This document shows, in pieces, positions 8,657-59,794 of a DNA stretch of 64,000 nucleotides. Positions within the stretch are counted from its first letter, which is position 1. Each line of letters starts with the position of its first letter. The stretch is from Acidobacteriota bacterium (GTDB lineage Bacteria > Acidobacteriota > UBA890 > WLXD01), in assembly GCA_965205505.1 (NCBI GenBank), contig CBDBHB010000009.1, positions 512,001 to 576,000 of the forward strand, written 5' to 3'. The position numbers and the translations under genes were made by a program. Below the pieces are notes generated by a model. That model was not told where the DNA came from and searched no databases. It saw nothing but the letters and a program-made list of their open reading frames with translations.

Positions 8657-11324
8657 CTACTCGCCGCGTAATGACACCGCCGGGTCGATTGAGGCCGCGC
8701 GTCGCGCCGGGAGCGCCGAGGCCACAACAGCGGCGACCAAGAGACAGGACACGACGGCGAGGTAGGTTTTGGGCTCCGTCGGACTCACGCCGAACAGTAG
8801 TGCCGCGATCCAGCGCGACGCGACGACGGCGAGCAACAGGCCAATCACCAGCCCGCCCCCGACCATCCAGCTGCTCTGGCCTACCACCATGCGCACCACA
8901 TCGCTGCTGCTTGCCCCGAGCGCCATCCGCACGCCGACTTCGTGCTGTCGCTGCGACACTAGGTAGCTGAGGACCCCGTACACTCCGAGAGCTGCCAGAA
9001 ACAGCGCAATGAGCGAGAAGATCCCCAGGATCATCGACGCGAAGCGCTCACGCGCCACCGAGTTCGCCAGCGTCGACGTCATCGTGTCGATGTTGTAGAC
9101 GGCGAGCTCTCTGTCGAGCGACCAGATACGCGAGCGCACCGACGCAACTGCATCGAGCGGGTCGCCGTTGGTGCGCACCATCAGAGTGACCACTCCGACC
9201 GCCGGTGCTTGTAGCAGGTTCACATACATCGCCGGAGGCGCGTCGCGATCCAGTCCCAGCGTTCTTTCGTTCTCGATCACGCCGAGGACGCGGCGTGGTA
9301 TCCCGGCCCACGGCAGCTCGAGCTGGTGCTCGAGTGGCTCGAGTCCGTCGAAGTAGCGCTCTCGGGCGGCGCGGTTGATGACCACCACGGGCTCGCTTTG
9401 CGCGTCGTCGGTCGCATCCATCAGTCGACCGTGGAGAAGCGTTGCACCGACCGTGTCGAAGTAGGTCGGGGTCACGAGGCGTAGGGTGATCTCGCCTTGC
9501 CCTACGTCGTAGGGGATGCCGACGATCCCGAAGCTGTTGGTGAAGCCAGCCTGGAGTGGGTGATTCGAGGCCAGCGCGGCCGCACGCACGCCCGGCAGAG
9601 CCTGTACGCGCGCCAACAGAGCATCGTAGAAGTTGAGTCGTTCGGGCCAGCTGGGCCAATTCCGGAAGTCGCGCGGATAGCGGGAGTCGGGAAGCTGGAG
9701 ATCGGCTCGGAGCACGTTTGCGGCACGAAACCCAGGGTCGACTCCTTGGAGGTTCCACAACGTTCCGACGAGCAACGCGGCAGCGACCAGCAACACCACC
9801 GCCAGAGCGGTCTGCCCCGCTACCAGGCAGCGACGCATGAACAGCTTCAACACGGCCGCCGCTTCGGCCTGTGAACGCCCCGCCTTGAGGGCGTTCTGTA
9901 TGTCTACCCGGCGCGCTTGGAGGGTGGGTAGCAGCCCGCAACCGACGCCGATGAGCGCACTCGTCGCGGCTGCAAACAGCAACACTCGGGAGTCGATGCC
10001 GACTACTGCCTGGCCGAGCAACTGCGGCGGTGCCAACGCCAGGAGCGCGCCCAAGCCGACGGTCGATAGCATTCCGCCGGCCAACAGCGCCAAGCCCGTC
10101 AGCAGCAACCCCTCTGCCAGGAAGCGGCGTGCCAGACGCGCATCGCTGGCCCCGAGCGCCACGTAGACGGCGGTCTCCTGTGCTCGTGCTGCGCCCCGTG
10201 CCAGCAACAGGTTGGCGACGTTGGCGCAAGCGATCGCTAGCACGGTTGTCACAGCCGCAAACAGCAGCCACAACGTCGTCTCGGCACCGCCACGCCGATA
10301 GTCGGTCAGGGGCTCTACGAAGACGCCACGATTGGCGTTCTCCCGGTAGCTGGCCTCCAGATCTGCCGCAATCGACGCGAGCTCCTCAGAAGCGTTGGCG
10401 AACGACGATGCGGCGGCAAGTCGCCCGAGCACTCTCACGTCGTGTCGGGCGCGCGCCGAGTTGGTTGAGTCGGCGCTGCAACGGTATCCACAGGTCGTAG
10501 TCGAGGTCGGGAAAGTCGAAACCGGGTGGAAGGACGCCGATGACCGTATGACTTCGATCGTTGAGCTCGATTAACGTGCCGATCACCTCCGGCGCCGCGG
10601 CGAACGCGTCCTGCCAAAAGGCGTGGGTGAAGAGCGCAACCGGCTCCCCGCCCGGGACGTCCTCGGCCGCCGTGATCGCTCGCCCGAGAGCAGGGGCTAC
10701 ACCGAGCACCCTCAAGAGATCTGCGCTCGCCGTTACTACCCTGAGCCGCCGTGGCTCGCCGCCGGCTCGCGTCAGGTTGAGGCTGCCAGTGGCGTACATC
10801 GCCATGCCGTCGAAGGCCTGGCTACGCTCGCGGAAGTCGAAGAAATCCAGTACCGACGCCGGCTCGCGGACAGTTCCGGTGGCGCGGTCGTTCTCCCAGA
10901 TCATTGCTAATCGGGCAGCGTCCTCGTAGGGAAGCGGGCGCAGCAGAACACCGTTGACGACACTGAAGATAGCGGTTGTCGTACCGATTCCGAGCGCCAG
11001 CGTGAGCACAATCACGGCGCTCAGGCCAGGCTGCCTGCTCAAGGATCGGCCTGCCATACGTACGTCATGCCAGAGATTGTCGATCACCATGCTCCATTCC
11101 TCGCGCTCGATTCGTTGCAGGCCCATCCGATGGCAGTCTTCACGCACCTGCGTCCGATCGCCGAACCTTTTCATCACCTCGTGCCGCGCCTTTTCTCCGG
11201 TCAGCCCGCGTCGTATGAGCTCCGCTACGCGCCCGTCGATGTGGAAGTCGAGCTCGTCGTCGATATCAGACCGAAGCACTTGACGTGGGAACAGACGGCG
11301 CCAGACATCGCGCCAATCACGCAT
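8657..11324 (-). pseudogene. ADOP-type duplicated permease split by a single frameshift near 10475 (real lesion or assembly error)
   Basis: ORFs 10386-11324 and 8657-10438 join as LWIPLQ|ADSTNSARARHDVRVLGRL if one base at ~10475 is removed; N-terminal DELDFH permease-prefix domain. Confidence 0.85.
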
Positions 11325-15621: not shown

Positions 15622-16348
15622 GGATCGGAGTCGAACGGCGCTCCCAGTGCTGTCGCGAACGCGCGGATGCGCGCCGCGTTCGCTCCCAGATCGCTTCGGC
15701 CCACGCGCGACGTCGAGCGTACGTCAACGACCGATCCCGACGAGGCCGGACGGACGCGCACGACGAAATCGTCCACGAAAGCGAAAACACCCGATACCGC
15801 ATAAGCCTCGATGCGGCCGTCGGCACGGTTGCTGAAGGCAATGGTTAGGCCGATCTCCTCCACTGCCCGGATGGCCGCCGCGTGAGCGGCACCGGGGTCG
15901 AGGTCGAGCTCGATGGGTCGCAAATCGGGATAAGCGCGTCGTTGCTCGACGATGACCTCGGCGCCGCCGTGCGGATAGGTCAAATCGCGGCTGGCGTTAT
16001 CGTCGTGGTCGAGGGCGACACGGTAAGCGGGCGCGTCGTCGGGTGACGTGGTGATGTCGTGAATCGGCGGCGCGTTCATCTGCAGAATGGTGGCCAGCAG
16101 CGCAATGATCAGCGCCGTGCCGCCGAAGAGTCCGCGTTGGCCTGCCGCCGGCGAGCGCGAATCCCTCCGTGCTCTTCGCCAGGCGAGCAGGCCGAGGGCG
16201 ATGCTGAGCAGCCCCCTAGGGCCCAAGTGAGCACGAAGACTCCGACCCCGCTCAACGGCCTGGCGGCGCCGACATGGATCGCGGCAATTGCGCCCGCCAT
16301 GATACCGACGGTAACGATGGGGGAGTATGCTGCACTCTGCGTCAACAT
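15618..16348 (-). CDS. DUF1499 domain membrane protein, frameshifted in a homopolymer at ~16212-16216
   Basis: PPIHDITT, QRRAYPDL, GRIEA, FVDDFVVRV, VDVRSTSRVGRSDLGANAARI; N-terminal helices lie in another frame starting at ATG 16348 with AGGAG SD. Confidence 0.8.
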
Positions 16349-16541
16349 TCTTTGCTCCTGCAGCGTCGGCAGACGCGCCGAGAATGCGTTTCAGAGTCTT
16401 GATCGGCTCGCTATCGAGCTCCTCGAGTCCGACCTCGACGAGACGTCCGCCGGCATTGCCGGCCCGCTGTCGACGTACGCAGAGTACAAGAGCCTCTGCC
16501 GCCGCGCCCCTGCCAGCTCGTTCGACTCCAGGTAGACTCTT

Positions 16542-17294
16542 GTGATGGCTGAAGACTGCGAAGAGCTCGTGGCGATCATTGCGGCGAGGGAGGACGAGCT
16601 CGTGCCGCTGCGCGAGCGTGTACTAGTTTCCGAGGAAATCAAGGACGGGCCCCGCTACTACGTACGAGGCACGTTGCGCGGCGTGCAGGTCGTACTCGCG
16701 GTGACCGGCGATGGCAAGCGTAACGCCGATCTCGGAATCCGACGGTTGATCCAGGTGTGCGCGCCGACGCGCGTCCTGGCGGTCGGGATGGGAGGTGCGC
16801 TATCGGCGGACCTTGCGGTTGGCGACCTGGTGGTTTCCAGCGAGGTGATGGAGGGAGAACGCACGCTGGCCTGTCCGGATCTGCAGTGGCTGGAGGAGGC
16901 GTCGCTTCATCTGGACTATGACCTCGGGCGGCTGGTTACCGTCGACGAGATACTGGCGACGCCATCCAGCAAGTCGGAGTGGTACGGAAGGACATGGCGC
17001 GATCAGCCCGCTGCCGCTGATATGGAGTCAGCCTGCTTCGCCAGGGTGGCCGTGGCCTACAAGCTTCCATACTTGATCGCGCGGGCTATCAGCGACGCCG
17101 CCAACGAGGTGCTGCCAGACTACCTTGAGGACTGCCGTGCGCAGGACGGCAGCATCGACAAGCGGCAGGTGTTTTGGAAGACAGTCTGGCGACCACGCTC
17201 GTGGGGCAGCATCGTACGCTTGCGCTCGCGCATGCGGCGGTGCGCTAGCACACTGGCCGATTTCGCCGAAGGGCTCGTTGCCGCATTGGCGTAG
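16542..17294 (+). CDS. Nucleoside phosphorylase family protein, HpnG-like (hopanoid-associated phosphorylase)
   Basis: TGDGK, GMGGAL, GDLVV, DMESA, RAISD, and a C-terminal DGSID...WRP...VRL extension as in HpnG-type proteins. Confidence 0.7.
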   Translation: MMAEDCEELVAIIAAREDELVPLRERVLVSEEIKDGPRYYVRGTLRGVQVVLAVTGDGKRNADLGIRRLIQVCAPTRVLAVGMGGALSADLAVGDLVVSSEVMEGERTLACPDLQWLEEASLHLDYDLGRLVTVDEILATPSSKSEWYGRTWRDQPAAADMESACFARVAVAYKLPYLIARAISDAANEVLPDYLEDCRAQDGSIDKRQVFWKTVWRPRSWGSIVRLRSRMRRCASTLADFAEGLVAALA

Positions 17295-17471
17295 GTAGCT
17301 ACGTTCCCACCGTTCACGGTGCGCGTCGCCAGTATGCGGCATTGACATGCCCCGAGGTGTCAAGGACACTCGGAACCCTACGCCCTCAGTGCGCTGCGCT
17401 GGTCTTGAACGCCGCGCGCCCGCCTCTCGTGCGTCGCTATTGCCGGCGCCGATGCCGCGTTGCGAGTACGC

Positions 17472-18518
17472 ATGAGCAGTACCGATTCACCGGCCGCCAA
17501 GCCACCGGCGGCGCGCGACCGCAAGGCCGAGCACATCCAACTGGCGCTCGAAGAGCGAATGCAACACGGCAGTCGCGGCTTCGATGCCTGGCAGCTCGAG
17601 CATTGCGCGCTTCCCGAGCTCGACCTGGCCGAGGTCGACCTCAGCACCGAATTCCTCGGCAAGCAGCTGATGGCGCCGCTGCTTATCTCCTGCATGACCG
17701 GTGGCACCGCTGACGCGGCCGGGATCAACCGCAACCTGGCAGTCGGGGCCGAGCGTGCGGGTGTTGCGGTTGGCGTGGGGTCGCAGCGCAAGGCGCTGGA
17801 GGATCCTACGCTCCAAGCTACCTTCCAGGTTCGCGAGCACGCCCCCACGGTACCCCTGTTGGCCAATCTGGGTGCGGTGCAACTGAACTGCGGGTACGGC
17901 GTCGCCGAGTGTCGGGCGGCCGTTCGTATGATCGATGCGGACGCTCTCGTGTTGCACCTGAACCCTCTGCAGGAGGCAATTCAGCCCGAGGGCGATGTCA
18001 ACTTCGCCAACCTGTTGCCCAAGATCGAAGCGATTGTTCATCAACTCGAGGTGCCGGTCATCGTCAAGGAGATCGGCATGGGCATATCGCTGTCGGTGGC
18101 CGAGCGGCTCGCCGAAGCCGGCGTCCGTATCATCGACACGGCGGGACATGGGGGCACCAACTGGGCCCGTATCGAAGCACAGCGTGCCGACGATCTCGAG
18201 CTCGGCGCGATGTTCGCCGACTGGGGAATTCCAACGCCCGACAGCATCCGCGCCGTCGCCAGCGTGCCGGGAGTCACCGTTATTGGCAGCGGCGGGGTCC
18301 GTACTGGAATCGACGTGGCCAAGGCGGTAGCGCTCGGCGCTGACATGGTCGGCCTGGCGTATCCGTTCCTCAAAGCGGCCCTGGAGTCGGCCGATGCGGT
18401 GGTGGCGCGGATCGACCGTACTCTGACCGAGCTCAGGGTGTCGATGTTCTGCGCCGGCATCCGTACAATGGCCGATCTGCGTGCGGCGAATCTGACCGAC
18501 CGAGCGCCCCGCCGATGA
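17472..18518 (+). CDS. fni: Type 2 isopentenyl-diphosphate delta-isomerase
   Basis: RKAEHI, SCMTGG, GSQR, ANLGAVQL, HLNPLQE, VIVKEIGMG, GGTNW, SGGVR. Confidence 0.96.
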   Translation: MSSTDSPAAKPPAARDRKAEHIQLALEERMQHGSRGFDAWQLEHCALPELDLAEVDLSTEFLGKQLMAPLLISCMTGGTADAAGINRNLAVGAERAGVAVGVGSQRKALEDPTLQATFQVREHAPTVPLLANLGAVQLNCGYGVAECRAAVRMIDADALVLHLNPLQEAIQPEGDVNFANLLPKIEAIVHQLEVPVIVKEIGMGISLSVAERLAEAGVRIIDTAGHGGTNWARIEAQRADDLELGAMFADWGIPTPDSIRAVASVPGVTVIGSGGVRTGIDVAKAVALGADMVGLAYPFLKAALESADAVVARIDRTLTELRVSMFCAGIRTMADLRAANLTDRAPRR

Positions 18519-19762
18519 ACGACACGGCCGAGCCGGTCGACCAGGACGCCCTCGTCGACGAGATTGCAGCCGGTACCCGGCGCTTTCATCAGCTGCCGCC
18601 CGAGCTCAGCGCTGCTGATGCAGCAGCCATTCGACGGCAGGCCCTCGAGCGCCTCGCCGGAGCAACTCTGACACACACCGGCAAGTACTCGTTCGACGCG
18701 ACGCGCGCCGCCGGCAGCCATTGCGAGAATCTGATCGGTGTGACACAGGTGCCGGTCGGCATAGCAGGGCCACTGCTCGTGCGGGGTGATTACGTCGACG
18801 GTGAGGTCTATGTCCCTCTGGCCACGACGGAGGGAGCGCTCGTCGCCAGCATAAACCGAGGCTGTGCGGCCATCCGGGCCGCTGGCGGGGCCACCGTGTA
18901 TGTGGAGGACGTCGGCATGACCCGGGCGCCGGTGTTTCGCTCCAGCGGGCTGGCGCAGACACGTGAATTCCTCCGGTGGGTTACCGACAACGAGGATGAG
19001 ATCCGCTCCGTGGCAGAGGGCACGAGCCGTTTCCTGCAGCTCGTGGATATCCGCCCCTATGCTTTCGGTACCACGATCTTCCTGCGCTTCAGGTTCCGCT
19101 CAGGCGACGCGATGGGAATGAACATGGCAACCATCGCCTGCGATCAGCTAGTACGCGAGCTGATCGAGCCAGCGACCGGCGTGCGTTGCGTCGCTCTTTC
19201 CGGAAACTACTGTACCGACAAGAAGCCCGCAGCGATCAACTTTCAGGAAGGCCGCGGCAAGCGCATACATGCGCAGGTCAGACTCGACGCCGATGTGCTG
19301 GCGCGCCTGAAGACGAGCTCGGCCGAGCTGCTCGAGGTGCAGTACCGCAAGAACCTGCTGGGCTCGATCGCTGCCGGTTCGATAGGTTTCAACGCCCACG
19401 TCGCCAATGTCCTCGCGGCAGTGTTTCTCGCCACTGGGCAGGATCCGGCACACGTAGTGGAAGGGTCGATGGGAATCACCTCCATCGAGCCTGGCGACGA
19501 GGGTGGCGTGGTGGCATCGATGTACCTGCCTGCTGTCCCGCTGGCGGCGATCGGCGGTGGTACTGCGCTCGATACGCAACGCGAGGCGCTCGCTTTGCTC
19601 GGCGTCGCGCCGGAGCCGGACCGGCCTGGCGTCGCGGTGTTGCGATTGGCCGAGATCCTCGGCGCCGCCGTTCTCGCAGGCGAGCTGTCGCTGCTGGCCG
19701 CCCTTACCTCTCAGGACCTCGCCGGCGCCCACAAGCGGCTGGGGCGCGCCCAGGCCGGCTAG
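18515..19762 (+). CDS. hmgA: Class I (NADPH-type) HMG-CoA reductase
   Basis: CENLIG, PLATTEGALVASINRG, GMTRAP, GDAMGMNM, SGNYCTDKK, TGQD.AH, GGGT, C-terminal catalytic His. Confidence 0.96.
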   Translation: MNDTAEPVDQDALVDEIAAGTRRFHQLPPELSAADAAAIRRQALERLAGATLTHTGKYSFDATRAAGSHCENLIGVTQVPVGIAGPLLVRGDYVDGEVYVPLATTEGALVASINRGCAAIRAAGGATVYVEDVGMTRAPVFRSSGLAQTREFLRWVTDNEDEIRSVAEGTSRFLQLVDIRPYAFGTTIFLRFRFRSGDAMGMNMATIACDQLVRELIEPATGVRCVALSGNYCTDKKPAAINFQEGRGKRIHAQVRLDADVLARLKTSSAELLEVQYRKNLLGSIAAGSIGFNAHVANVLAAVFLATGQDPAHVVEGSMGITSIEPGDEGGVVASMYLPAVPLAAIGGGTALDTQREALALLGVAPEPDRPGVAVLRLAEILGAAVLAGELSLLAALTSQDLAGAHKRLGRAQAG

Positions 19763-19774
19763 GCGGTCACACCG

Positions 19775-20893
19775 ATGGATGCAGCGCGGTCGCTCGAACG
19801 GCGCTTGCTAGCACGCGTTTCAGTGCCTGGAAAGCTCATCCTCATGGGTGAACATGCCGTCGTCTACGGTCGACCGGCGCTGGTGGCCGCCACCAGCCTG
19901 CGCCTACGGATCGACCTGTACCGCAGCCACCGGGCCGGCGTGGAAGTGGAGCTGCCGGAGCTCCAGTACCAAGACCATGTCTCGTGGCAGGAGATCCTGC
20001 GTTATGCGAGCCGAATGCGGCAACGGTGGGAACGCTACGATGCGAGCCCGACGCCCGAGGTGTTCGCTAGCCTTCAGGACGACCGCGCCGACCGGCTGGT
20101 GCTGCTCGCACTGGGCGAGGCCATCACGGCGCTGGGTGAGGATCCGGGCGCGAAGGGCCATCCGCTGAGCGCGCTGCGGCTTCGGGTGGACTCGGCGGTG
20201 CCGATGCAGGCCGGCTTCGGGAGCTCCGCCGCCATCGCTGTGGCGGTGGTGACGGCGGTTTGTGCGCTCTTCGGCCGGGCGGAGAGGTGGTCGCTGATCG
20301 GGCCGATCGCGGGCGAGGTGGAGCGCCGGCAGCATGGCGCGCCGTCTGGTGTAGACGTCGCGACCGTGTTTCACGGCGGCATGTTGCGCGCCCGCCGCGC
20401 CGGCGAAGAGCTATCGATCGAGCCGCTGGCGGCGCGCCCTGACACCCTGCGGCGGCTGCGCCTCTTCGATACGGGTCGCTCGGCCGAGCCGACCGGCACG
20501 GTGGTCGCGGCAGTACGAGCACAGCATGACCTTCACCCAGGCAGCTTCGAGGAGTCGTTGGACGCCGCCGAAACCGCAACCCTGGCCTTCCAGGCTGCGG
20601 TTACCGCCTCGGCCGACCGGATCGACTTAGTGCCACCGATCCGCGATGCTCAGCGCTACCTGGAGTCTCTCGGGGTGGTGCCCGAGCCAGTATGCGACGC
20701 TGTCCGCGCTATCGAAGCGCTGGGTGGCGCTGCCAAAATCTCTGGTTCGGGTTCGCTCGCAGGTCCAGGGGCCGGGTCCTTGTTGGTACTGCTGCCGGAT
20801 GGCATCGAGAATCTCCCCGAGCCGCTGGCGAGGTTTCCGGAGCACGAAGTGTCGCTGGGCGCCGAGGGTGTGTGGGTAGAGGTGGTGTCATGA
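19775..20893 (+). CDS. mvk: Mevalonate kinase (GHMP)
   Basis: PGKLILMGEHAVVYG, GFGSSAA, HG.PSGVD, KISGSG. Confidence 0.9.
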   Translation: MDAARSLERRLLARVSVPGKLILMGEHAVVYGRPALVAATSLRLRIDLYRSHRAGVEVELPELQYQDHVSWQEILRYASRMRQRWERYDASPTPEVFASLQDDRADRLVLLALGEAITALGEDPGAKGHPLSALRLRVDSAVPMQAGFGSSAAIAVAVVTAVCALFGRAERWSLIGPIAGEVERRQHGAPSGVDVATVFHGGMLRARRAGEELSIEPLAARPDTLRRLRLFDTGRSAEPTGTVVAAVRAQHDLHPGSFEESLDAAETATLAFQAAVTASADRIDLVPPIRDAQRYLESLGVVPEPVCDAVRAIEALGGAAKISGSGSLAGPGAGSLLVLLPDGIENLPEPLARFPEHEVSLGAEGVWVEVVS

Positions 20894-21915
20894 GTCGCAG
20901 CGCCACCGTCGAAGCACCTTCCAATATTGCGTTTGTGAAGTACTGGGGTGCCGCTGACCTGGAGAAGGCCATCCCACTCAACGCCTCGATCTCGATGTCG
21001 TTGCGGGCGTGCGTTACAAGGACGAGCGTCGAGACGCTCGCGGCCGGCGCCGACGACGAGATCTGGATATGTGTCGAGGGTCAATGGCGTCGCGCCGAAG
21101 GGGCGTTCGAGCATCGCGCCGCAGCGCATCTGGAGGGTATGCGGCGCTGGGCCAAAGTCGACGTGGGTTTTAGGGTTGCCACGGAGAACAGCTTTCCCGC
21201 CGCCGCCGGTATTGCCTCGTCGGCTTCCGGCTTTGCGGCACTTACCATGGCAGTGCTGGCGGCGCTCGAGCGAGAGCCGGCGGGCGATGAGCTATCGAAT
21301 CTGGCGCGGTTGTCTGGCTCGGGCTCCGCATCGCGGTCGGTTTTCGGCGGCTACGTGCAGTGGCCGCACGGCGACGAGGCGGACCCGTGGCGCGCCGCGC
21401 CGCTGGCGACAGCCTCGCATTGGGACCTGCGCGACGTAATCGCCATTGTGCAGACCGGTCCCAAGGCAGTGTCGTCTCTCGAGGGGCACGCCGGTGCCAC
21501 CACCAGCCCCCATTTCGCGCGCCGGCAGGAGCTGATCCCGTCGCGACTTCAACGGGTGCGCGACGCCATCGCGGCGCGCGACCTGGACCGACTCGGTCCG
21601 GTCGTCGAAGAAGACGCAATTGAGCTCCACCTGGTAGCGATGTCCTCGCAGCCCCCGATCTTCTACTGGCGGCCGGCGACGCTTCGCGTGCTGGACCATG
21701 TTCGCGTTCTGCGCAACGGCGGCACGTCGGCGTGGGCAACGATGGACGCCGGGGCGAACGTGCATGTGATTTGCTCTGCCGATGACGAGGAGGACGTCGC
21801 CGCCGGGCTGGAGGCGCTGGATGGTGTCCAAGCCGTGATCCGCGACGGCGTGGGCTCGGGCCCGCGGGCCCTGCCGGTATCGTTGTTCGACGCTCTCGAT
21901 CGAGCGCGACCGTGA
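20890..21915 (+). CDS. mvaD: MvaD-family decarboxylase, by context probably phosphomevalonate decarboxylase
   Basis: SNIAFVKYWG, NSFPAAAGIASSASGFAAL, SGSASRS, TMDAGANVH. Confidence 0.9.
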   Translation: MSRSATVEAPSNIAFVKYWGAADLEKAIPLNASISMSLRACVTRTSVETLAAGADDEIWICVEGQWRRAEGAFEHRAAAHLEGMRRWAKVDVGFRVATENSFPAAAGIASSASGFAALTMAVLAALEREPAGDELSNLARLSGSGSASRSVFGGYVQWPHGDEADPWRAAPLATASHWDLRDVIAIVQTGPKAVSSLEGHAGATTSPHFARRQELIPSRLQRVRDAIAARDLDRLGPVVEEDAIELHLVAMSSQPPIFYWRPATLRVLDHVRVLRNGGTSAWATMDAGANVHVICSADDEEDVAAGLEALDGVQAVIRDGVGSGPRALPVSLFDALDRARP

Positions 21916-22712
21916 ACGATCTGGTGGTGATCAAGCTGGGCGGCAGCTTGATCACCCACAAGCGCCGCCATCGAACGGTAAGGCGGGCTGAGCTTTCGCG
22001 ACTCGCCGGCGAGATCGCGGCGCTGACCCGCGGCTCTCGATTCCCGGTGCTGCTAGGGCACGGCAGCGGGTCCTTCGGGCACGTCGCGGCAGCGCAGTCG
22101 GGCGTCCATGAGGGGATGGCCGGGCGTGGCGCGCGGGTCGGTGTTTCGCAGACGCAGGCTGCCGCTTCCGAGCTGCACGCGATTGTCATGAGCGCTCTGC
22201 GTGAGGCCGGCGTGGCTGCCTACTCGGTGGCTCCGTCGAGCGCCATTGTTGCCCGAGGCCCCGGTCTTCGGCCGAGCGTGCACCTGGAGCCAGTGCGGCG
22301 AGCGCTCGACAGTGGACTGCTACCCGTTATGTATGGCGACATCGTCATGGACCGGCAACGTGGCTGTTCGATCTGCTCCACCGAAACGGCACTGCTTGCA
22401 TTCGCTCGCTCGCTAGGCTCGTCGAATCGGTGTGTCTCCGATGCCATCTGGCTCGGAGACACCGACGGCATTCTTGATGGAGATGGGGTGAGCGTTGCTC
22501 GCGTCCGCTTGCGAGATGCCAGGCGCGTCCGTCGCCTGGTGAGCGGCGCGGCCGCGACCGATGTGACCGGCGGCATGCGCCATCGCCTCGAGGCTGCGTT
22601 GGCGCTAGCCCGCATCGGCGTGCGGTCCTATCTGCTCGATGGCCGTCGGCCGGGCATCCTGCGACGTGCGCTGCGAGGCGCCACGGTGCCGGGGACGATC
22701 GTCGAGCCCTGA
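21912..22712 (+). CDS. Isopentenyl phosphate kinase (amino acid kinase fold)
   Basis: KLGGSLITHK, HGSGSFGH with the IPK-diagnostic His, YGD, DVTGGM. Confidence 0.88.
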   Translation: MNDLVVIKLGGSLITHKRRHRTVRRAELSRLAGEIAALTRGSRFPVLLGHGSGSFGHVAAAQSGVHEGMAGRGARVGVSQTQAAASELHAIVMSALREAGVAAYSVAPSSAIVARGPGLRPSVHLEPVRRALDSGLLPVMYGDIVMDRQRGCSICSTETALLAFARSLGSSNRCVSDAIWLGDTDGILDGDGVSVARVRLRDARRVRRLVSGAAATDVTGGMRHRLEAALALARIGVRSYLLDGRRPGILRRALRGATVPGTIVEP

Positions 22713-22760
22713 GCAGCGGCGGCTTTCGTCGCCTGGGCCGCGCCGCCGCCAAGGTGGATA

Positions 22761-23714
22761 ATGGTCCTCGGCCAGCCAAAGCCAGGCGCACGCATGGACC
22801 GCATCGAAGACCTTCTCGAGAAGACCAGCCGCACGTTCGCGCTATCGATCCCGTTGCTGCCGGAGCCGACCCGCCGCGAGCTCGGGATCGCCTACCTGCT
22901 ATTCCGCATTGCGGACACCTTCGAGGATGCGTCCGAATGGGGCCGACAGCGGCGGATCGATGCCCTCGAGGAGTTCATGAGCCTGGTTCGACATCCAGAC
23001 GAGCAGCGAGCCGCGAAGCTCGGACGCAGCTGGGCCACTTCCGTACCGATTGATCATCCCGGCTATCTCGAGCTACTCCGCGAATCGGCAACCGTGATCC
23101 GGGAGTACCAGCGTCTGCAGCCTGGCGCACGGGGGATCATCCGCAAGCACACGTTGCGGACCGCTGCCGGCATGGCCGGATTCGTCAATCGCTCTGTCGA
23201 TGGTGTGCTCAAGCTCGAGTCTCTAGCTGACCTACGCGAGTATTGTTACGTGGTTGCCGGTATTGTCGGTGAGCTCAGCACCGACTTGTTCCTTCTCGAG
23301 CGCCCGCAGCTGGCGTCGTCGATCGAGTTCTTGCAACAGCGCGCTGCGCGGTTTGGTGAGGCGCTGCAGCTGGTCAACATCCTCAAGGATGCTGCCGACG
23401 ACCGGCGTGAGGGGCGGTGTTACCTGCCCGCGGCGCTGAAGCGCAGGGAGATCTTCCGGTTGGCCCATGAAGATCTCCGAGTAGCGGCGCACTACACCAA
23501 CGCACTGCAGGCGGCGAGCGCGCCGCGCGGCATCATCGCGTTCTGCGCCCTGCCGACACGGCTTGCCGTCGTTGCCCTCGACGTCGTCGAGCGATGCGGG
23601 CCCGGCGCAAAGATCTCCCGCGAAGAGGTTGCCGAGATCGTCCAGGCCATGAACCTAGATCTCGAGGCCGGTGCTCCAGCGGTGCCGATTCCAGCAACCG
23701 CGAAACCGACGTGA
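22761..23714 (+). CDS. Squalene synthase-like (squalene/phytoene synthase family)
   Basis: SRTFALSI, YLLFRIADTFED, YCYVVAGIVG, FGEALQLVNILKD, GRCYLP. Confidence 0.88.
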   Translation: MVLGQPKPGARMDRIEDLLEKTSRTFALSIPLLPEPTRRELGIAYLLFRIADTFEDASEWGRQRRIDALEEFMSLVRHPDEQRAAKLGRSWATSVPIDHPGYLELLRESATVIREYQRLQPGARGIIRKHTLRTAAGMAGFVNRSVDGVLKLESLADLREYCYVVAGIVGELSTDLFLLERPQLASSIEFLQQRAARFGEALQLVNILKDAADDRREGRCYLPAALKRREIFRLAHEDLRVAAHYTNALQAASAPRGIIAFCALPTRLAVVALDVVERCGPGAKISREEVAEIVQAMNLDLEAGAPAVPIPATAKPT

Positions 23715-23743
23715 CCAAGCCGGCGGCTGGCGCGGTTGCGAGA

Positions 23744-24565
23744 TCATTTTCCGGCGCCTTCGGGGTTAGCTCTCGTGGCGCGGTCGATCCAGGCGTCGGC
23801 GTCCGGATGGCCGCGTTGCTGCCATTCCCGGGCTCGATCGATGGTCCGCCGATAAGCGTCGCGGCTTGCCGCGTCGTCTTCGACTTCGGCGTAGGCCTCG
23901 GCTAGCGCGAGGAGGTTTGGCGGGTACTCGGGGTAGAGCTCGACGGCCCGTTGCGCCTGCTCCAGGCCCTCGTCCGCGTTGCCGGGACCGGTGGGCCAAC
24001 CGGGCGCTTGCACCAGCATCTGCGATAGCACGCGTCGGGGTCCGGCGTAGTCGAGGCGTTCGTGCCCGGCGATGGCAGCGCGGAGCTCGCGTTCCATTAT
24101 GCGTAGCCCGTCCGAAGCCGTGGCGCGACGCTGGTTGGCTTGTACGCCGATGGCGATCGCCAGCCAGTAATGACAGTCCGGGTTTGTTGGCTCCCGTCTT
24201 CGACACCACTGGGCTGTTTGCACTGCCTCGGTGGCCTTGTCCCTGCGTGCCTGCGGATCGTCCAGATGCTCCCCAAGCCAGGTCTGTGCCCTCACGGCAC
24301 CGATGACTGCCAGCGCGCTGGACGGACGGGCGATGGCAGATCGGATCCAAAGAGCCTCGGCCTGGCGCACCGCGTCGACATTGGGGCGTCGCCCGAATTC
24401 TCCCTCGGCGTCGGCCGCCAGACGGGCAGCCTCCTGCGCGTCGACGCGTTCCGGATCGACGTGGCCGAGCGCCGAACTCGTGTCAAGCGGCTGGAGTGCA
24501 GCGGCACACGCGGACGAAGTAAGGGCTGCGGCAGCTAGCAAGGCGGCGCCACGACGAAGCCTCAT
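23744..24565 (-). CDS. TPR-like lipoprotein (BstC/TatT-like)
   Basis: Lipobox-like LTSSAC; helical repeats; YWLAIAIG, LDYAGPRRVL..QAPGWP.GPG; last gene of the MMPL operon. Confidence 0.6.
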   Translation of the reverse strand: MRLRRGAALLAAAALTSSACAAALQPLDTSSALGHVDPERVDAQEAARLAADAEGEFGRRPNVDAVRQAEALWIRSAIARPSSALAVIGAVRAQTWLGEHLDDPQARRDKATEAVQTAQWCRRREPTNPDCHYWLAIAIGVQANQRRATASDGLRIMERELRAAIAGHERLDYAGPRRVLSQMLVQAPGWPTGPGNADEGLEQAQRAVELYPEYPPNLLALAEAYAEVEDDAASRDAYRRTIDRAREWQQRGHPDADAWIDRATRANPEGAGK

Positions 24566-25434
24566 TGAGCCGCCGAGTATGCCGCCCGGGCAAGGCCCAG
24601 CGCCTCAGCGTCCAGGGCTTCGAAGCGCTGTAGCTGCATGGTTTCGAGCACGTCAGCGAAGCTCGCCGACTCGTGGACACCGAGTAGCCCCTTGACCAGC
24701 TGCTGGCGCACCGGCTCGGGGACGCGGTCGCCCAGGGCGACGACGAGCCAGGCCAAGAGAGGCGGCGACGTTGCCACCACCTCGAGCGACTCCGCGCCCG
24801 GAAACGAAGCCAACGCGGCGGTCTGGGGGCCATCGAGAAGTACGGCAACTTCCTCGCCGGCGGCCACTCGGCGTATGCCGGCAAGCACCCGCCGCGTGAA
24901 CTTGACCGAAAGCGAATCCGGGAGCGCTCCCCAATCCGCCAGCGCCGGCCCGCGTACGAAACTGGGTGCGTATGCCGGAAGCCCTAATAGCTCCCAGCCA
25001 GCGAGCGACTCGGGCCCGGTGATCACCCCGGCGGAAGCCACCAGGCTCCAACGCTCGGTAGCGCTCCCGGACGCCTGCACCGCCTGCGCCACCGCGGTGA
25101 GCGCCAGCTCCTGCTCGTACTTCAGATACAAGGGCAGTGGCACCAGCGCCAACGACGTGGCGTTGTCGCGTAGACGACTCACCCCGGCTTCCTCGCTCGG
25201 ATGGTATTCGGCCGTCAAGGTCCCTGCCGGCCACCCGGAGGCGTCCGAGACCATCGCCGCGAAATCGTTCATCGTCGGCTGCGCCTGCTCGGTGTTGCTC
25301 GGATACCCTGGCGCGCAGGCCACCAGCCGCAGAGTGTCCAGGCCGGCGAATGCGCCACCCCGACTCCCGCCGCCGGCCGGCGGTACAGTTGCCGTCGTTG
25401 CAAACAGCGCCACCGCGAAGAGAAGCTTGTTCAT
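24562..25434 (-). CDS. Periplasmic binding protein, phosphonate-binding-like fold (BstB-like); alternative start 25455
   Basis: Signal peptide MNKLLFAVAL; CAPGYP...AQPTM..FA N-terminus; two-lobe binding-protein pattern; 4-nt overlap with the lipoprotein gene. Confidence 0.6.
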   Translation of the reverse strand: MNKLLFAVALFATTATVPPAGGGSRGGAFAGLDTLRLVACAPGYPSNTEQAQPTMNDFAAMVSDASGWPAGTLTAEYHPSEEAGVSRLRDNATSLALVPLPLYLKYEQELALTAVAQAVQASGSATERWSLVASAGVITGPESLAGWELLGLPAYAPSFVRGPALADWGALPDSLSVKFTRRVLAGIRRVAAGEEVAVLLDGPQTAALASFPGAESLEVVATSPPLLAWLVVALGDRVPEPVRQQLVKGLLGVHESASFADVLETMQLQRFEALDAEALGLARAAYSAAQ

Positions 25435-25502
25435 CGTCGGCGCGGATCCGTTCACCTGTGGCGAAGGTTGTCAGTAGTCTTCGAAAGAATACCCGCGACC
25501 CT

Positions 25503-28196
25503 TCAGCGGCGCGCGATCCCGCTCACGATCAGCAGGTTCGGCAGCACGATCAAGGCGGCGATCGTGCAAGCGCCGACCCCCAGCAACAGCAGGGCCCCGA
25601 GGCTCGCCATGCCACGATGTGTAGCGAACACGAGGCTCCCGAATCCCACCATGGTCGTAAGCGAAGCGATGAGGATCGCCCGCCCGGTATGCGAAACGAC
25701 CGTCATGATGCCGGCGCTGCCCTCCAGTCGCAGTCGGTGGATGATGTGGACTCCGGCATCGATGCCAACACCCAGGACGATCGGTACCGCCACCAGGTTG
25801 GCGAAATTGAACGACAGGCCGAGTGCCCACATGAGTCCGAGCATCCATACCGTCCCGAAGAAGACGGGTACGAGTGCCAGGGCCGTGTGTTGCGTGTTAC
25901 GCAGATCCAGTAGCAACACCAGGAACACGAGCAACGCGGCGCTCGCGAATGCTAGCCCGAACCCCGAGGTGATCAAGGCAGAATGGCTCTCGAAAAGCAC
26001 CGGAAAGCCGATGGCATTGCTGGCGACGCGGCGCGACGCGACGTTGAACTGTCCCAGGAAGCCGGTGTCATAGATGTCGCCCGCCGGGAACAGATAGCCG
26101 ACGTATCGACCGTCCTCGGTCATGAACCGATCGACGATCTCGGAAGGCAAGGATGCGCGGGTCGGGAGCGGCACGCTGGCGGCGTCGCGCAGCTGCTGTA
26201 GGGCGCTGAACGCCACGACGCGCAGCGCCTCCTGCGCTTCGGCCCACTCGGCGAGCCTCTCCGGGCTCGCCGCCATCGCTAGCTCGATGGCTCCTGCGGT
26301 CGCCTGACGGGCCTTCTCCAGGGCTCCGGACACCCCTCCCAGCCCGGCAACGAATGCGTCGTCGGCGGCGGTGGCGAGGGCAGACTCGAGTCGCAACAGC
26401 GAGTCACTCAGTCGGCGCCCGTCGAACGCGGCCACGGTCAGCTCGATGACTTCCAGAGTCCTACGGGCGCGCGCCGCGGCGGCCTCCGACGCGAGCGGTT
26501 GATCGGGCAGGAATGTGAGTATCGATTCGAACCGACGGATGCTGGCCTCGTCCTCGGCGCGCGAGCGTAGCGCGCGGAGCTGCTCCAGATCCTCGGCGAC
26601 GACGAGGTTGAAGTCGTGGCTGAGCGCCGACTCGTCGTTGATGATCTCCAGATAATGGATTGACTCGGAACCTGCCGGGAGAAGCTCTAGCAGGCTCGGC
26701 TCCAGCTCCACGCGGCTCGCTGCGAGCCCGGCGATCGCGGTCAGGCCGATCGCCAGCGCGACGACGAGGCCCGGTGACGCGCAGACCCAACGGGCCGCCC
26801 GATCGTCCCAGATCTGGTCAACGGCGGCACGCGCTGCCGCGTTGTCGTGTTCGGGGGCACCGCGCAACAGCAGCAGTGCCGGTAGCACTAGCAGGGCGGC
26901 AAGCAGGCACAGCAGCACGCCGACGCTGGTAACCAGGCCCAGCTGGGAAAAACCACGAAAATCCATGAGCAGCAGACAGGCGAACGCGGCCGAGGTGGTG
27001 AACGCAGACGCGACGACCGCGGCACTCGTCGTTCGAAGCGTGGCGCGCACGGCCTCCCGGCGACCCTTGTTCTGCCGTTCGAGCTCGTACTGCGATAGGG
27101 GGTGCACTGCGTAGTCGATACCCATGCCGACGAGAATGGGGATCAGTGCCGTGGTGATGATGTTGAGCGACCCGATCTCCAGCTGCACCGCGCCAATCGA
27201 CCAGGTGACTCCGGCCGCCAGGGTCGCCAGGCCGAGCAGAGCGTGGCGTCGCCGGCGGAACACCAGCAACGAGATTCCGAGCACGCCGACGATGGCGATC
27301 AACGAGGTGCGGCGGGTGTCCCGTCCTATGGCATTCATCTCTTCCACGGCCATCGCGGCCGGGCCGGTGAGTCCATAGCGAACGCCTGCACGCTCCGACA
27401 ACACGGCCGCGACGGCCACCCGGACGCTATCCACCAGCGCCCGCTGAGCTTCCAGGCTGTCATCGAAATACGCAGGGCTGACCAGTACGAACACGACACG
27501 CTCATCGCTGGTCGACAGGTAGCCATCGCCGGTCAACGATCCGCGCCGCCCGCTGTCTATCAGCATTAGCGGCACCTGCTTCAGCCGATCGACAAACCCA
27601 TGAGGATCGGTGAGGAAGTCGCGCTCGGCGTCGACGAGGTCGAGCAGCCAGGCGGCCGCTACGGCGGCATCGTCGGACGGCAAGACACTGCCTGATTCGA
27701 GCGAATCCTCGATGTCAGTGGCGCTGCGCAGGTTCAGATCGGCCCAGCTCGTCAGGATCAGCTTGCCGTCGACGGCAAGTAGCCGCTGCACCATCTCGAA
27801 CGCTTGTTCGACCATGTCCGCCGGTGCCAGGGCAAGCGCATGATCGGCAAGCCAATCGAAGTCGACGCGGTAGAACACGCTACGTACCTGCGGGTCCGCT
27901 TGCAGGTGCTCGGCGATCTCGCGTGCTGTGGTTTCCAGGTCCTCGACCGATACGCCGCTTGCGCTTGCTTCCAGCGCGATAATGAGCGGCTCGGCGCTGG
28001 CGAACTGTGAGCGCAGCGAGTTCCATCGCGCCTGGCTCACGTCATCTTCCGGCACCAGCTCTTGTCGGGAGGTCAGAAGCTCGATTCCCGTCCCCAGCCA
28101 AATGGAGATCGCGCCCAGCGCTAGAGCGACGGTAAGCACGGCGCGTGGATGGTCCAGAACCAGCGACTCGGCGCGCCTGAGCACAAGGCGTATCAT
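25503..28196 (-). CDS. MMPL/RND lipid transporter (HpnN/BstA-like)
   Basis: Duplicated halves with GLTGP, GMGIDYAVH and GVGIDAGVH, SLTTMVGFGSL; ~12 TM helices. Confidence 0.92.
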   Translation of the reverse strand: MIRLVLRRAESLVLDHPRAVLTVALALGAISIWLGTGIELLTSRQELVPEDDVSQARWNSLRSQFASAEPLIIALEASASGVSVEDLETTAREIAEHLQADPQVRSVFYRVDFDWLADHALALAPADMVEQAFEMVQRLLAVDGKLILTSWADLNLRSATDIEDSLESGSVLPSDDAAVAAAWLLDLVDAERDFLTDPHGFVDRLKQVPLMLIDSGRRGSLTGDGYLSTSDERVVFVLVSPAYFDDSLEAQRALVDSVRVAVAAVLSERAGVRYGLTGPAAMAVEEMNAIGRDTRRTSLIAIVGVLGISLLVFRRRRHALLGLATLAAGVTWSIGAVQLEIGSLNIITTALIPILVGMGIDYAVHPLSQYELERQNKGRREAVRATLRTTSAAVVASAFTTSAAFACLLLMDFRGFSQLGLVTSVGVLLCLLAALLVLPALLLLRGAPEHDNAAARAAVDQIWDDRAARWVCASPGLVVALAIGLTAIAGLAASRVELEPSLLELLPAGSESIHYLEIINDESALSHDFNLVVAEDLEQLRALRSRAEDEASIRRFESILTFLPDQPLASEAAAARARRTLEVIELTVAAFDGRRLSDSLLRLESALATAADDAFVAGLGGVSGALEKARQATAGAIELAMAASPERLAEWAEAQEALRVVAFSALQQLRDAASVPLPTRASLPSEIVDRFMTEDGRYVGYLFPAGDIYDTGFLGQFNVASRRVASNAIGFPVLFESHSALITSGFGLAFASAALLVFLVLLLDLRNTQHTALALVPVFFGTVWMLGLMWALGLSFNFANLVAVPIVLGVGIDAGVHIIHRLRLEGSAGIMTVVSHTGRAILIASLTTMVGFGSLVFATHRGMASLGALLLLGVGACTIAALIVLPNLLIVSGIARR

Positions 28197-58021: not shown

Positions 58022-59228
58022 GTGGTGAGCTCGAGCGGTCGTACGACGAGCAGCGTTAGGTCGTCGGCCTGCTCCGCATCGGGTCCGGTGTGGCCATGGA
58101 GCGCGTCGAGCACCGCAGCGCTGATGTCGGCTGCGGTACCATGGCGGTGGGCTCGTGTCACCTGCTCCAGGCGCCCCTCGCCGAACTCCTCGGCGCGGCC
58201 GTCGACAGCCTCGGTGACGCCGTCGGTATATATCAACAGGATCTCATCGAGCTCCATGGTGCGCTCTTGTAGCTCGTACTCGCTGTTGGCGAACAGCCCC
58301 AGCGGTAGCCCACCGCCGAACAACCGGTGCGCCGCGGCTGGGCCGATGATCAGCGGGGGGTTGTGGCCGGCGTTCACGTAGCGCAAGGTTCCACCCGGTG
58401 TCAGATGCCCGACGAAGAAGGTCGCGTGCCGTTCGGGTGCCGTGCGCTCGACCAGGAATCGGTTCACGAGGCGGCAGATTTCGGCGAGGTCGTCATGCAC
58501 CGAGTGGGCGGCAAGAAACGCGGATTGTAGCGATGACATGAGCAACGCGGCAGGCACACCCTTGCCGGACACGTCACCCACGGCGAAACAGATGCCGTGA
58601 TCGCCGCGGTCGAGAACCTCGTAGTAGTCGCCACCCACCTGCCGCGAGGCGATGTTGACCGCATGCGTCTCTACCCACGACCGGGTCGGCACTCGTCCGC
58701 GCAGCAAGCTTTGCTGAATTCGACTGGCGATCTGAAGGTCGTCCTCCAGCTGCTGCTTGGCCTCGATCTCCCGCTCCAGGCGCCGGTAGGTATAGATCAA
58801 CGACGCCACCCCGAGGCCTACGCTCACACCCAATACCGGCAGGGTGATCGCCTCGCGCCAGCGCAGCAGCCAGTACGATGCCGGCTCGCGAGCGAGCGTG
58901 GCCCAGGTGGCAAACACCGTCCCCAGCGTGATTACCCCGGCGCTCAGCAGACGTCGCACGTAGGGGGGAACGTCGAGTAGCTGGGGCGCACGAACCGTCG
59001 CGTCGCCACGCCGCCCAGGCCGTCGCAGACAAGCGCCCAGATCCAACCCGGATGTCGCTCGCCGTGCAGATAGAGCAGGAGGACGTATGCTAGCAGCGTG
59101 CCGATGGTGGCCGCCAGCAGGTCGGCAGCGAGACGCCGCCCGATGGCCGGGTCGGAGGCTGATTCGCCGATTGACGCCGATACGGTCGTCATCTGGCGGC
59201 GATCCGTGGATCCCGCGGTGCGGTTCAA
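58018..59228 (-). CDS. Membrane PP2C/SpoIIE phosphatase, frameshifted in a 6-base homopolymer at ~58963-58968
   Basis: IQQSLL, VGGDYY, GDVSGKGVPAA, NAGHNPP, YTDGVTEA, DDLT; N-terminal helices lie in ORF 58944-59228. Confidence 0.85.
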
Positions 59229-59794
59229 TTCGCCCGCGTCAAGTACTCGCCGGTGCTCGTATCGACCCGAACACGGTCGCCCTGGTTGATGAACGGAGGA
59301 ACCTGGATCACCAGACCAGTCTCTAACGTCGCCGGTTTCGTCTGCGCCGCGGCGGTGGCGCCCTTGATGGCCGGATCCGTCTGCGTGACCTCCATCTCGA
59401 CGGTACCCGGCAGCTCGACCCCGAGGGCCTCTGTACCCACGAAGGTGACTTTGACCTCGGTGTTCGCCAGCAAGTAGGGCAGCTCCTCCTGGAGCTTGTC
59501 AGCGGTCATGCCGGACTGCTCGTAGGTCTCAAGGTCCTGGTCCATGAAAGTGTAGAGATCGCCGTCCAAGAAAAGGTATTGCATGGTGCGCCGGTCAACG
59601 TGTGCCGTTTCCAACGTCTCGGCCGAGCGGAAGCGTTTGTCGATCAGCGTCCCAGTGCGCATGTTGCGCAGCTTCGTCTGCATCACCGCTTGACCTTTCC
59701 CCGGTGTGACGTGGGTGAACCCCTGGACACGTAGCAGCTCACCGTCGACTTCCAGGACCATGCCTCGCTTGATCTTTGTAGCCGAAATGCCCAA
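59225..59794 (-). CDS. efp: Elongation factor P
   Basis: HVTPGKGQA, KPATLETG, VPPFI, GEY; CAGGAG SD before TTG. Confidence 0.96.
   Translation of the reverse strand: MGISATKIKRGMVLEVDGELLRVQGFTHVTPGKGQAVMQTKLRNMRTGTLIDKRFRSAETLETAHVDRRTMQYLFLDGDLYTFMDQDLETYEQSGMTADKLQEELPYLLANTEVKVTFVGTEALGVELPGTVEMEVTQTDPAIKGATAAAQTKPATLETGLVIQVPPFINQGDRVRVDTSTGEYLTRAN

Follow-up and report, generated by a model that had tools for sequence, protein, structure and literature searches.

How a bacterium might make isopentenyl diphosphate (IPP) from mevalonate (MVA) with an MvaD-family decarboxylase and an isopentenyl phosphate kinase (IPK), when no phosphomevalonate kinase (PMK) accompanies its mevalonate kinase (MVK), is the question raised by a gene cluster in a 64,000-nucleotide stretch of an Acidobacteriota genome (hereafter "the window"; G000:C9:512001-576000, from a genome of 5.98 Mb in 9 contigs; completeness 96.29%, contamination 1.29%). 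An earlier note on this DNA had proposed that MvaD acts here on mevalonate-5-phosphate, as part of a compact bacterial operon. This proposal is supported by the lack of any PMK match in the genome, by the phylogeny of MvaD, by its closest match in the Protein Data Bank (PDB), 6n0x, and by two signature residues. At a rough probability of 80%, the operon would run the haloarchaea/Chloroflexi-type "decarboxylate, then phosphorylate" route from 3-hydroxy-3-methylglutaryl-CoA (HMG-CoA) to IPP and dimethylallyl diphosphate (DMAPP).

In the proposed pathway, HMG-CoA reductase (HMGR) would convert HMG-CoA to mevalonate and MVK would convert mevalonate to mevalonate-5-phosphate, which MvaD, on its presumed substrate, would phosphorylate and decarboxylate to isopentenyl phosphate. 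IPK would then form IPP, and a type-2 isopentenyl-diphosphate isomerase (IDI2) would provide DMAPP. The product of the last gene would probably turn farnesyl diphosphate into squalene or a related C30 product. Open reading frames (ORFs), Pfam and NCBIfam bear out the order given in the earlier note, fni-hmgA-mvk-mvaD-IPK, and its statement that the cluster holds only two GHMP-fold genes (Table 1). Its extent, 17472..22712, was right for these five genes and wrong at the end, where a sixth, squalene-synthase-like gene had been missed: as this gene follows ipk at 48 nt and is syntenic in relatives, the unit reaches 23714. The junctions are an ATGA overlap (fni/hmgA), a 12-nt gap (hmgA/mvk), a second ATGA overlap (mvk/mvaD), a GTGA overlap (mvaD/ipk) and the 48-nt gap before the synthase gene, and such overlapping or close junctions suggest one translationally coupled unit. 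The segment 17472-23714 on the plus strand is a tightly packed operon, the genes of which are probably co-transcribed. In a scan of positions 16000-24500, no site resembled a promoter (0.6 expected) and 3 resembled terminators (3.5 expected). For fni, a TTG at 17460 is a second possible start; the mvaD ORF spans 20692-21915, but its domain begins only at residue 71, and the gene is taken to start at 20890, with an ATG that shares bases with the stop codon of mvk.

The kinases of the operon were assigned by family models and by PDB searches. With mvk as query, all 11 matches were mevalonate kinases, and PMK models of NCBIfam scored at most 28 bits. With ipk, a single-copy gene in this genome, the top seven of eight matches were IPKs (best 125 bits). 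Both motifs named in the earlier note were found, HGSGSFGH at residues 50-57 and DVTGGM at residues 217-222, and K8, G10-G11, K17, H57 and D217-T219-G220 are present. Assignment of ipk as a fosfomycin kinase was considered and rejected, as FomA scored 44.5 bits against a cut-off of 550 and, in the PDB search, 50 bits against the 125 of the IPKs.

Table 1. Genes of the operon and of its flanks, with positions in the window and the best family assignments.
Gene	Positions	Strand	Assignment and scores
PNP_UDP_1 nucleosidase gene	16542-17294	+	best matches MTA/SAH nucleosidase, HpnG-like, all below cut-off
fni	17472-18518	+	type-2 (FMN) isopentenyl-diphosphate isomerase; TIGR02151 396.2 bits (cut-off 281.3)
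hmgA	18515-19762	+	class I (NADPH) HMG-CoA reductase; PF00368 385 bits; TIGR00533 444.4 bits (cut-off 441.8)
mvk	19775-20893	+	divergent mevalonate kinase, GHMP fold; best family TIGR00549, 132.3 bits
mvaD	20890-21915	+	MvaD-family ATP-dependent decarboxylase, 341 aa; PF22700, PF18376; TIGR01240 220.5 bits (cut-off 171.35)
ipk	21912-22712	+	isopentenyl phosphate kinase, 266 aa; NF040647 153.2 bits (cut-off 120)
squalene/phytoene-synthase-like gene	22761-23714	+	SQS_PSY family, last of unit; PF00494 129 bits
BstC-like gene	23744-24565	opposite to operon	below curated cut-off
BstB-like gene	24562-25455	opposite to operon	below curated cut-off
HpnN/BstA-like RND transporter gene	25503-28196	opposite to operon	below curated cut-off

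The first line of evidence is the lack of a PMK match. A search of the rest of the genome, which the earlier note had suggested, covered three PMK families: neither the Gram-positive/ERG8-like model TIGR01220 nor the animal-type family PF04275 had a match in the genome, and the sole match of the archaeal model NF040957 in the genome search was one of 16 bits to the operon's own mvk. A genome-wide census of the GHMP N-terminal domain likewise returned no PMK among its five genes, which are mvk, mvaD, thrB (beside thrC), galK and one sugar-kinase-like gene (L003:958-2223), the last at about 2.914 Mb of C9. For the methylerythritol phosphate (MEP) pathway, no match to Dxr or IspH was found in the genome and no IspE in the GHMP census, and a search of 11 genomes from the window's family gave no Dxr in any of them. 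HMG-CoA synthase is encoded about 1.2 Mb from the operon. As far as the gene content goes, the operon appears to be the cell's only visible source of IPP: because no MEP pathway was found, the operon must deliver IPP, and because no PMK was found, IPP would be reachable solely by the action of MvaD on the monophosphate, followed by IPK.

The second line of evidence comes from the decarboxylase itself. The best PDB match of MvaD was 6n0x/6n0y (216 bits, E 6e-63), with 155 bits for the best diphosphomevalonate decarboxylase (MDD, or DMD); 6n0x is, we assume, the phosphomevalonate decarboxylase (PMD, or MPD) of Anaerolinea thermophila. In the alignment, 6n0z differs from 6n0x by two changes, N to K after YWG and H to M in the QGH motif, and exactly at these two variant positions the window MvaD has Ala21 and His200. 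A structure of the Anaerolinea PMD exists (Thomas et al., 2019; PMC9254496), and a passage of a 2024 paper names a Lys of DMD and a His of PMD as the distinguishing residues (PMC11052028). The discriminating residues used here were taken from this paper and from the 6n0x/6n0z difference. In Table 4 of Dellas et al. (2013; PMC3857490), Lys21 is MDD-specific and Leu, Met or Tyr stand in its place in MPD-like enzymes. The window MvaD lacks the DMD Lys and keeps the PMD His, while the catalytic Arg149 and Asp286 are retained. Judged by its closest match and these residues, it looks like a PMD, with mevalonate-5-phosphate as the probable substrate.

A scan of species genomes showed how these residues are distributed among relatives. 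Among the best 80 of 578 relatives, which together with the window make up 81 rows, the nearest are Thermoanaerobaculia and Acidobacteriota metagenome-assembled genomes (MAGs) with 55-61% identity, plus one MAG labelled Gemmatimonadota; many Chloroflexota follow with 39-48%, and then the Candidate Phyla Radiation (CPR), Planctomycetota, Proteobacteria, Bacillota and a few archaea. NCBIfam was used to assign the GHMP kinases near these genes, on 73 of 86 candidate ORFs (the 13 omitted were 11 short loose-motif ORFs, one antisense over the mvk of L054, and the window's own mvk, which was scanned separately), and IPK neighbours were identified by phmmer. Lys or Arg occupies position 21 in 33 rows; the loci of 27 of these hold a PMK or a second GHMP kinase, and none holds an IPK. 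Another residue stands there in 48 rows, with a PMK or a second GHMP kinase at none of the loci and an IPK at 15. Natural fusions also occur in the family. P0133 (608 amino acids), in which an amino-acid-kinase (IPK-like) domain and MvaD form one protein, is a further point in favour of the proposed route; in P0151, P0171 and P0173 a GHMP kinase is joined to MvaD, and in P0258 MvaD is joined to a GHMP kinase. Three Chloroflexota loci (L046, L047 and L077) are unusual, two of them from Anaerolineaceae with a non-Lys residue at position 21 and Met for His, and one from Anaerolineae with an IPK in the locus and Asn for His.

The MvaD phylogeny, another check that the earlier note had suggested, was addressed with two maximum-likelihood trees built by a quick method, one of 81 rows and one of 96 (the partial copy L107 of G042 was left out of the latter). 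All 18 acidobacterial copies linked to IPK group in a single clade (SH-aLRT 100), nested in a 64-row clade (SH-aLRT 97) that contains every Chloroflexota row, and all 25 PMK-linked rows, including 5 from Acidobacteriota, fall outside the latter. With named MAG loci as anchors, the window MvaD thus groups with Chloroflexota-type decarboxylases and apart from PMK-linked ones. A single clade of all 23 acidobacterial copies was rejected (log-likelihood difference 122.6, p-AU 0.001), in a test of a group named after the tree had been seen. As a separate observation, IPK-adjacent MvaD copies with the non-Lys/His combination also occur in L011, L029 and L035, from MAGs labelled Gemmatimonadota, Planctomycetota and Gammaproteobacteria; L011 falls within the acidobacterial clade. 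These loci point to gene transfer, to contigs binned with the wrong genome or to a route that is more widespread.

Third, the same association is seen across the phylum. Of 401 acidobacterial species genomes (including three unpublished ones, G024, G049 and G152, none of them a carrier), 33 have an IPK above cut-off, 37 an MvaD match at E<=1e-20 and 7 a PMK-model match at E<=1e-8. MvaD and IPK occur together in 31 species (about 8%) from 10 families, with no PMK match in any of the 31, and the two genes lie on the same strand and within 500 nt of each other in 30 of them. The exception is G042 (loci L106 and L107), which has IPK alone at one site and, far from it, an MvaD in two overlapping ORFs without the N-terminus, possibly a decaying copy. 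Two fragmented genomes (G007 and G026) have only an IPK. The six species with MvaD and without IPK are a natural control inside the phylum, and a PMK match lies directly downstream of mvaD in all six; the seventh PMK-model match, in G034, is weak, and this genome has no MvaD.

Residues and synteny were read in 17 fetched acidobacterial loci. PMK-linked copies have Lys21 and Met (5 of 5), and IPK-linked copies for which the N-terminus is available have the His and a residue other than Lys at position 21 in 10 of 10 (A, A, T, V, G, T, A, L, A and A). The order fni-hmgR-mvk-mvaD-ipk was found in 8 of the 10 IPK-linked loci, with one of the other two at a contig edge and the second holding mvaD-ipk only, and at 7 of these 10 loci the gene next after ipk is a synthase gene. 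Judging from gene content, some acidobacterial families have both isoprenoid routes side by side: among five MvaD+IPK genomes from families other than that of the window, Dxr is found in three (G236, G119 and G363) and not in the other two. A different layout was observed in L091-L095 (G018, G165, G256, G346 and G192), which carry a classical MVA operon type with MDD (Lys/Met) and PMK, followed by an ORF of about 750 amino acids. This ORF matches the window mvk and, weakly, the window HMGR, and was read, by analogy, as a fusion of class-II HMGR and MVK; such a fusion was confirmed by NCBIfam in Proteobacteria and Calditrichota loci (e.g., L065 and L083).

Several observations weigh against the monophosphate route, and a number of them could be accommodated by a classical pathway, the main rival, which we consider improbable. 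Here, MvaD would be a true MDD, an unrecognised PMK, either unrelated or very divergent, would make the diphosphate, and IPK would serve salvage only, a role suggested for it in those plants and animals in which both occur. Indeed, MvaD passes TIGR01240, the curated model for MDD, its relatives are labelled "diphosphomevalonate decarboxylase" in public records, and, with 153.1 bits against a cut-off of 475, it falls outside the narrow haloarchaeal PMD family NF040704. TIGR01240 is, however, unable to separate the two substrates, since it also matches Haloferax volcanii, used as a control, and scores the PMK-linked acidobacterial copies higher (258-282 bits). The Arg83 of the Roseiflexus enzyme, the basic residue of MPD in Dellas et al., corresponds to Ala27 in the window MvaD, with Lys26 one position before. 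His200 alone does not discriminate, as 5 of the 81 rows combine Lys or Arg at position 21 with His, and four of these have two GHMP kinases. In the IPK-fused P0133, position 21 is Arg. The trees were made by a quick method and anchored on named Chloroflexota MAG loci, with no characterised decarboxylase among the rows. The mvk, at 132.3 bits, stays below the curated TIGR00549 cut-off of 163.05. Finally, the genome is about 4% incomplete, and at 96.29% completeness the absence of PMK is likely, not proven. The sugar-kinase-like gene L003:958-2223 has no family above cut-off and is the only place among the GHMP kinases of the genome where a cryptic PMK could hide; this gene, however, adjoins a GalU-like sugar nucleotidyltransferase gene.

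In favour of a classical pathway, functional IPKs are described in classical-pathway organisms in a passage of Dellas et al. (PMC3857490). Against it, a PMK match is found neither in this genome nor in any of its 31 MvaD+IPK counterparts in the census, and the same model does detect PMK in the acidobacterial MvaD genomes that lack IPK. Moreover, the Lys by which MDD contacts the second phosphate is Ala in the window MvaD, and ipk is translationally coupled to mvaD. Neither this distribution among genomes nor the absent Lys is easily reconciled with a classical pathway.

Somewhat less probable still is a dual-specific MvaD that accepts both the mono- and the diphosphate, the operon being an intermediate stage between the two routes. 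Chloroflexota enzymes are called dual-specific in part of PMC11052028, which counts against strict monophosphate specificity, and the same source ties this property to a motif without the Lys and with the His kept, which the window MvaD shares. The deposited sequences of 6n0x and 6n0z are only two substitutions apart, and mutagenesis can turn the specificity of PMD into that of DMD, as stated in a section of PMC9254496. Dual specificity would, however, differ from the monophosphate route only in vitro: with no PMK there would be no source of the diphosphate in the cell, so that the flux would still pass through mevalonate-5-phosphate and IPK. A Thermoplasma-type or other variant, with MvaD as a mevalonate 3-kinase or bisphosphomevalonate decarboxylase, to which weak matches point, is very improbable: the scores, 29.5 bits for NF040847 (cut-off 560) and 19.9 bits for NF040848 (cut-off 440), are far too low, Asp286 is the catalytic Asp that mevalonate 3-kinases lack according to a passage of PMC9254496, and the same passage describes that route as lacking MVK, yet mvk is present here and coupled to mvaD.

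The proposed phosphomevalonate decarboxylase route is thus considered in the context of a genome whose affiliation was also checked, as suggested in the earlier note, with elongation factor P (EF-P) and other markers. The four organism-named matches among the best 120 for EF-P (59225-59794, minus strand) are all Acidobacteriota/Acidobacteria, the nearest with 89% identity; permeases of the ADOP family (TIGR03434) are encoded in the window, and the organism-named MvaD relatives are Acidobacteriota or Thermoanaerobaculia. These markers place the genome in Acidobacteriota, and not in Chloroflexota, where the route is already known. G+C is flat along the window and the flanking genes are ordinary chromosomal ones, so nothing points to a recent island. 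One ADOP-family permease on the minus strand is split over two overlapping ORFs (10386-11324, matching model positions 1-206, and 8657-10438, matching positions 215-803), as might result from a frameshift, from decay into a pseudogene or from misassembly.

The squalene-synthase-like gene has TIGR01559 as its best NCBIfam match, at 94.3 bits below the cut-off of 286.75, and the genome yielded neither a squalene-hopene nor an oxidosqualene cyclase (best PF13243 match 22 bits, below the cut-off of 26.1). The BstC-, BstB- and HpnN/BstA-like transporter trio downstream recurs only in a genome of the same family (L105), and a lone RND gene is also found in L011. On the other side, fni is preceded at a distance of 165-177 nt by the PNP_UDP_1 nucleosidase gene. 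Relatives of this gene occur close to the operon in L105, L097, L096 and L011 and close to MVA operons of the classical type in L057, L071 and L078.

Among known systems, the closest is the Chloroflexota route, represented by MPD and IPK of Roseiflexus castenholzii (Dellas et al., 2013; PMC3857490), with which the window shares an MVK, a decarboxylase without the MDD Lys, an IPK and the lack of PMK. The genes of the window, however, form one compact operon together with IDI2, HMGR and the squalene-synthase-like gene, whereas Chloroflexi MVA genes are described as unclustered in part of Hoshino and Gaucher (PMC6107057), and most fetched Chloroflexota loci had no MVA neighbour. Position 21 is Ala in the window, mostly Asn or Val in the fetched Chloroflexota rows and Leu in Dellas et al., and the basic residue stands at position 26 instead of 27; moreover, the window HMGR is of class I, and MvaD identity to Chloroflexota copies is 39-48%. 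The haloarchaeal route (PMD and IPK of Haloferax volcanii) has the reaction order and the enzyme families in common with the window but belongs to another domain of life; MvaD scores 153 bits against 475 for NF040704, and no haloarchaeal row is among the 80 best loci. With classical bacterial MVA operons (MDD-PMK-MVK), including the acidobacterial L091-L095, the window shares the upstream steps, the decarboxylase fold and, for the latter, the phylum; those acidobacterial operons, in contrast, have Lys21 and Met and lie beside PMK and an HMGR(class II)-MVK fusion, without IPK.

In a passage of Hoshino and Gaucher (PMC6107057), no bacterial phylum other than Chloroflexi is known to have MPD and IPK, and in 2024 the part of PMC11052028 cited here still confined the route to haloarchaea, certain other archaea and certain Chloroflexota. 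In the literature searched, which excluded subscription journals and supplementary tables, we found no relevant report that pairs acidobacteria with this pathway. On the genomic evidence, Acidobacteriota are likely a new host phylum for a known pathway, and in the window's family this gene set appears to be the sole isoprenoid route. Because MvaD is publicly labelled "diphosphomevalonate decarboxylase", pathway reconstructions would list these inhabitants of soil and sediment as having a classical pathway that is incomplete. Since both operon types occur in one phylum, they offer a natural contrast for the study of substrate choice in the decarboxylase family.

A broader scenario, unlikely as a whole, is that the PMD-IPK operon is an old trait of single origin in a wide acidobacterial radiation (one clade, 10 sampled families), which in the window's family has fully replaced the MEP pathway and is hard-wired to the squalene-synthase-like gene and a BstABC/HpnN-like lipid exporter. 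If this were true, it would point to bacteria whose envelope is furnished with acyclic C30 isoprenoid lipids by an "archaeal-style" route, and it would provide a second deep bacterial branch for the question of whether PMD preceded DMD.

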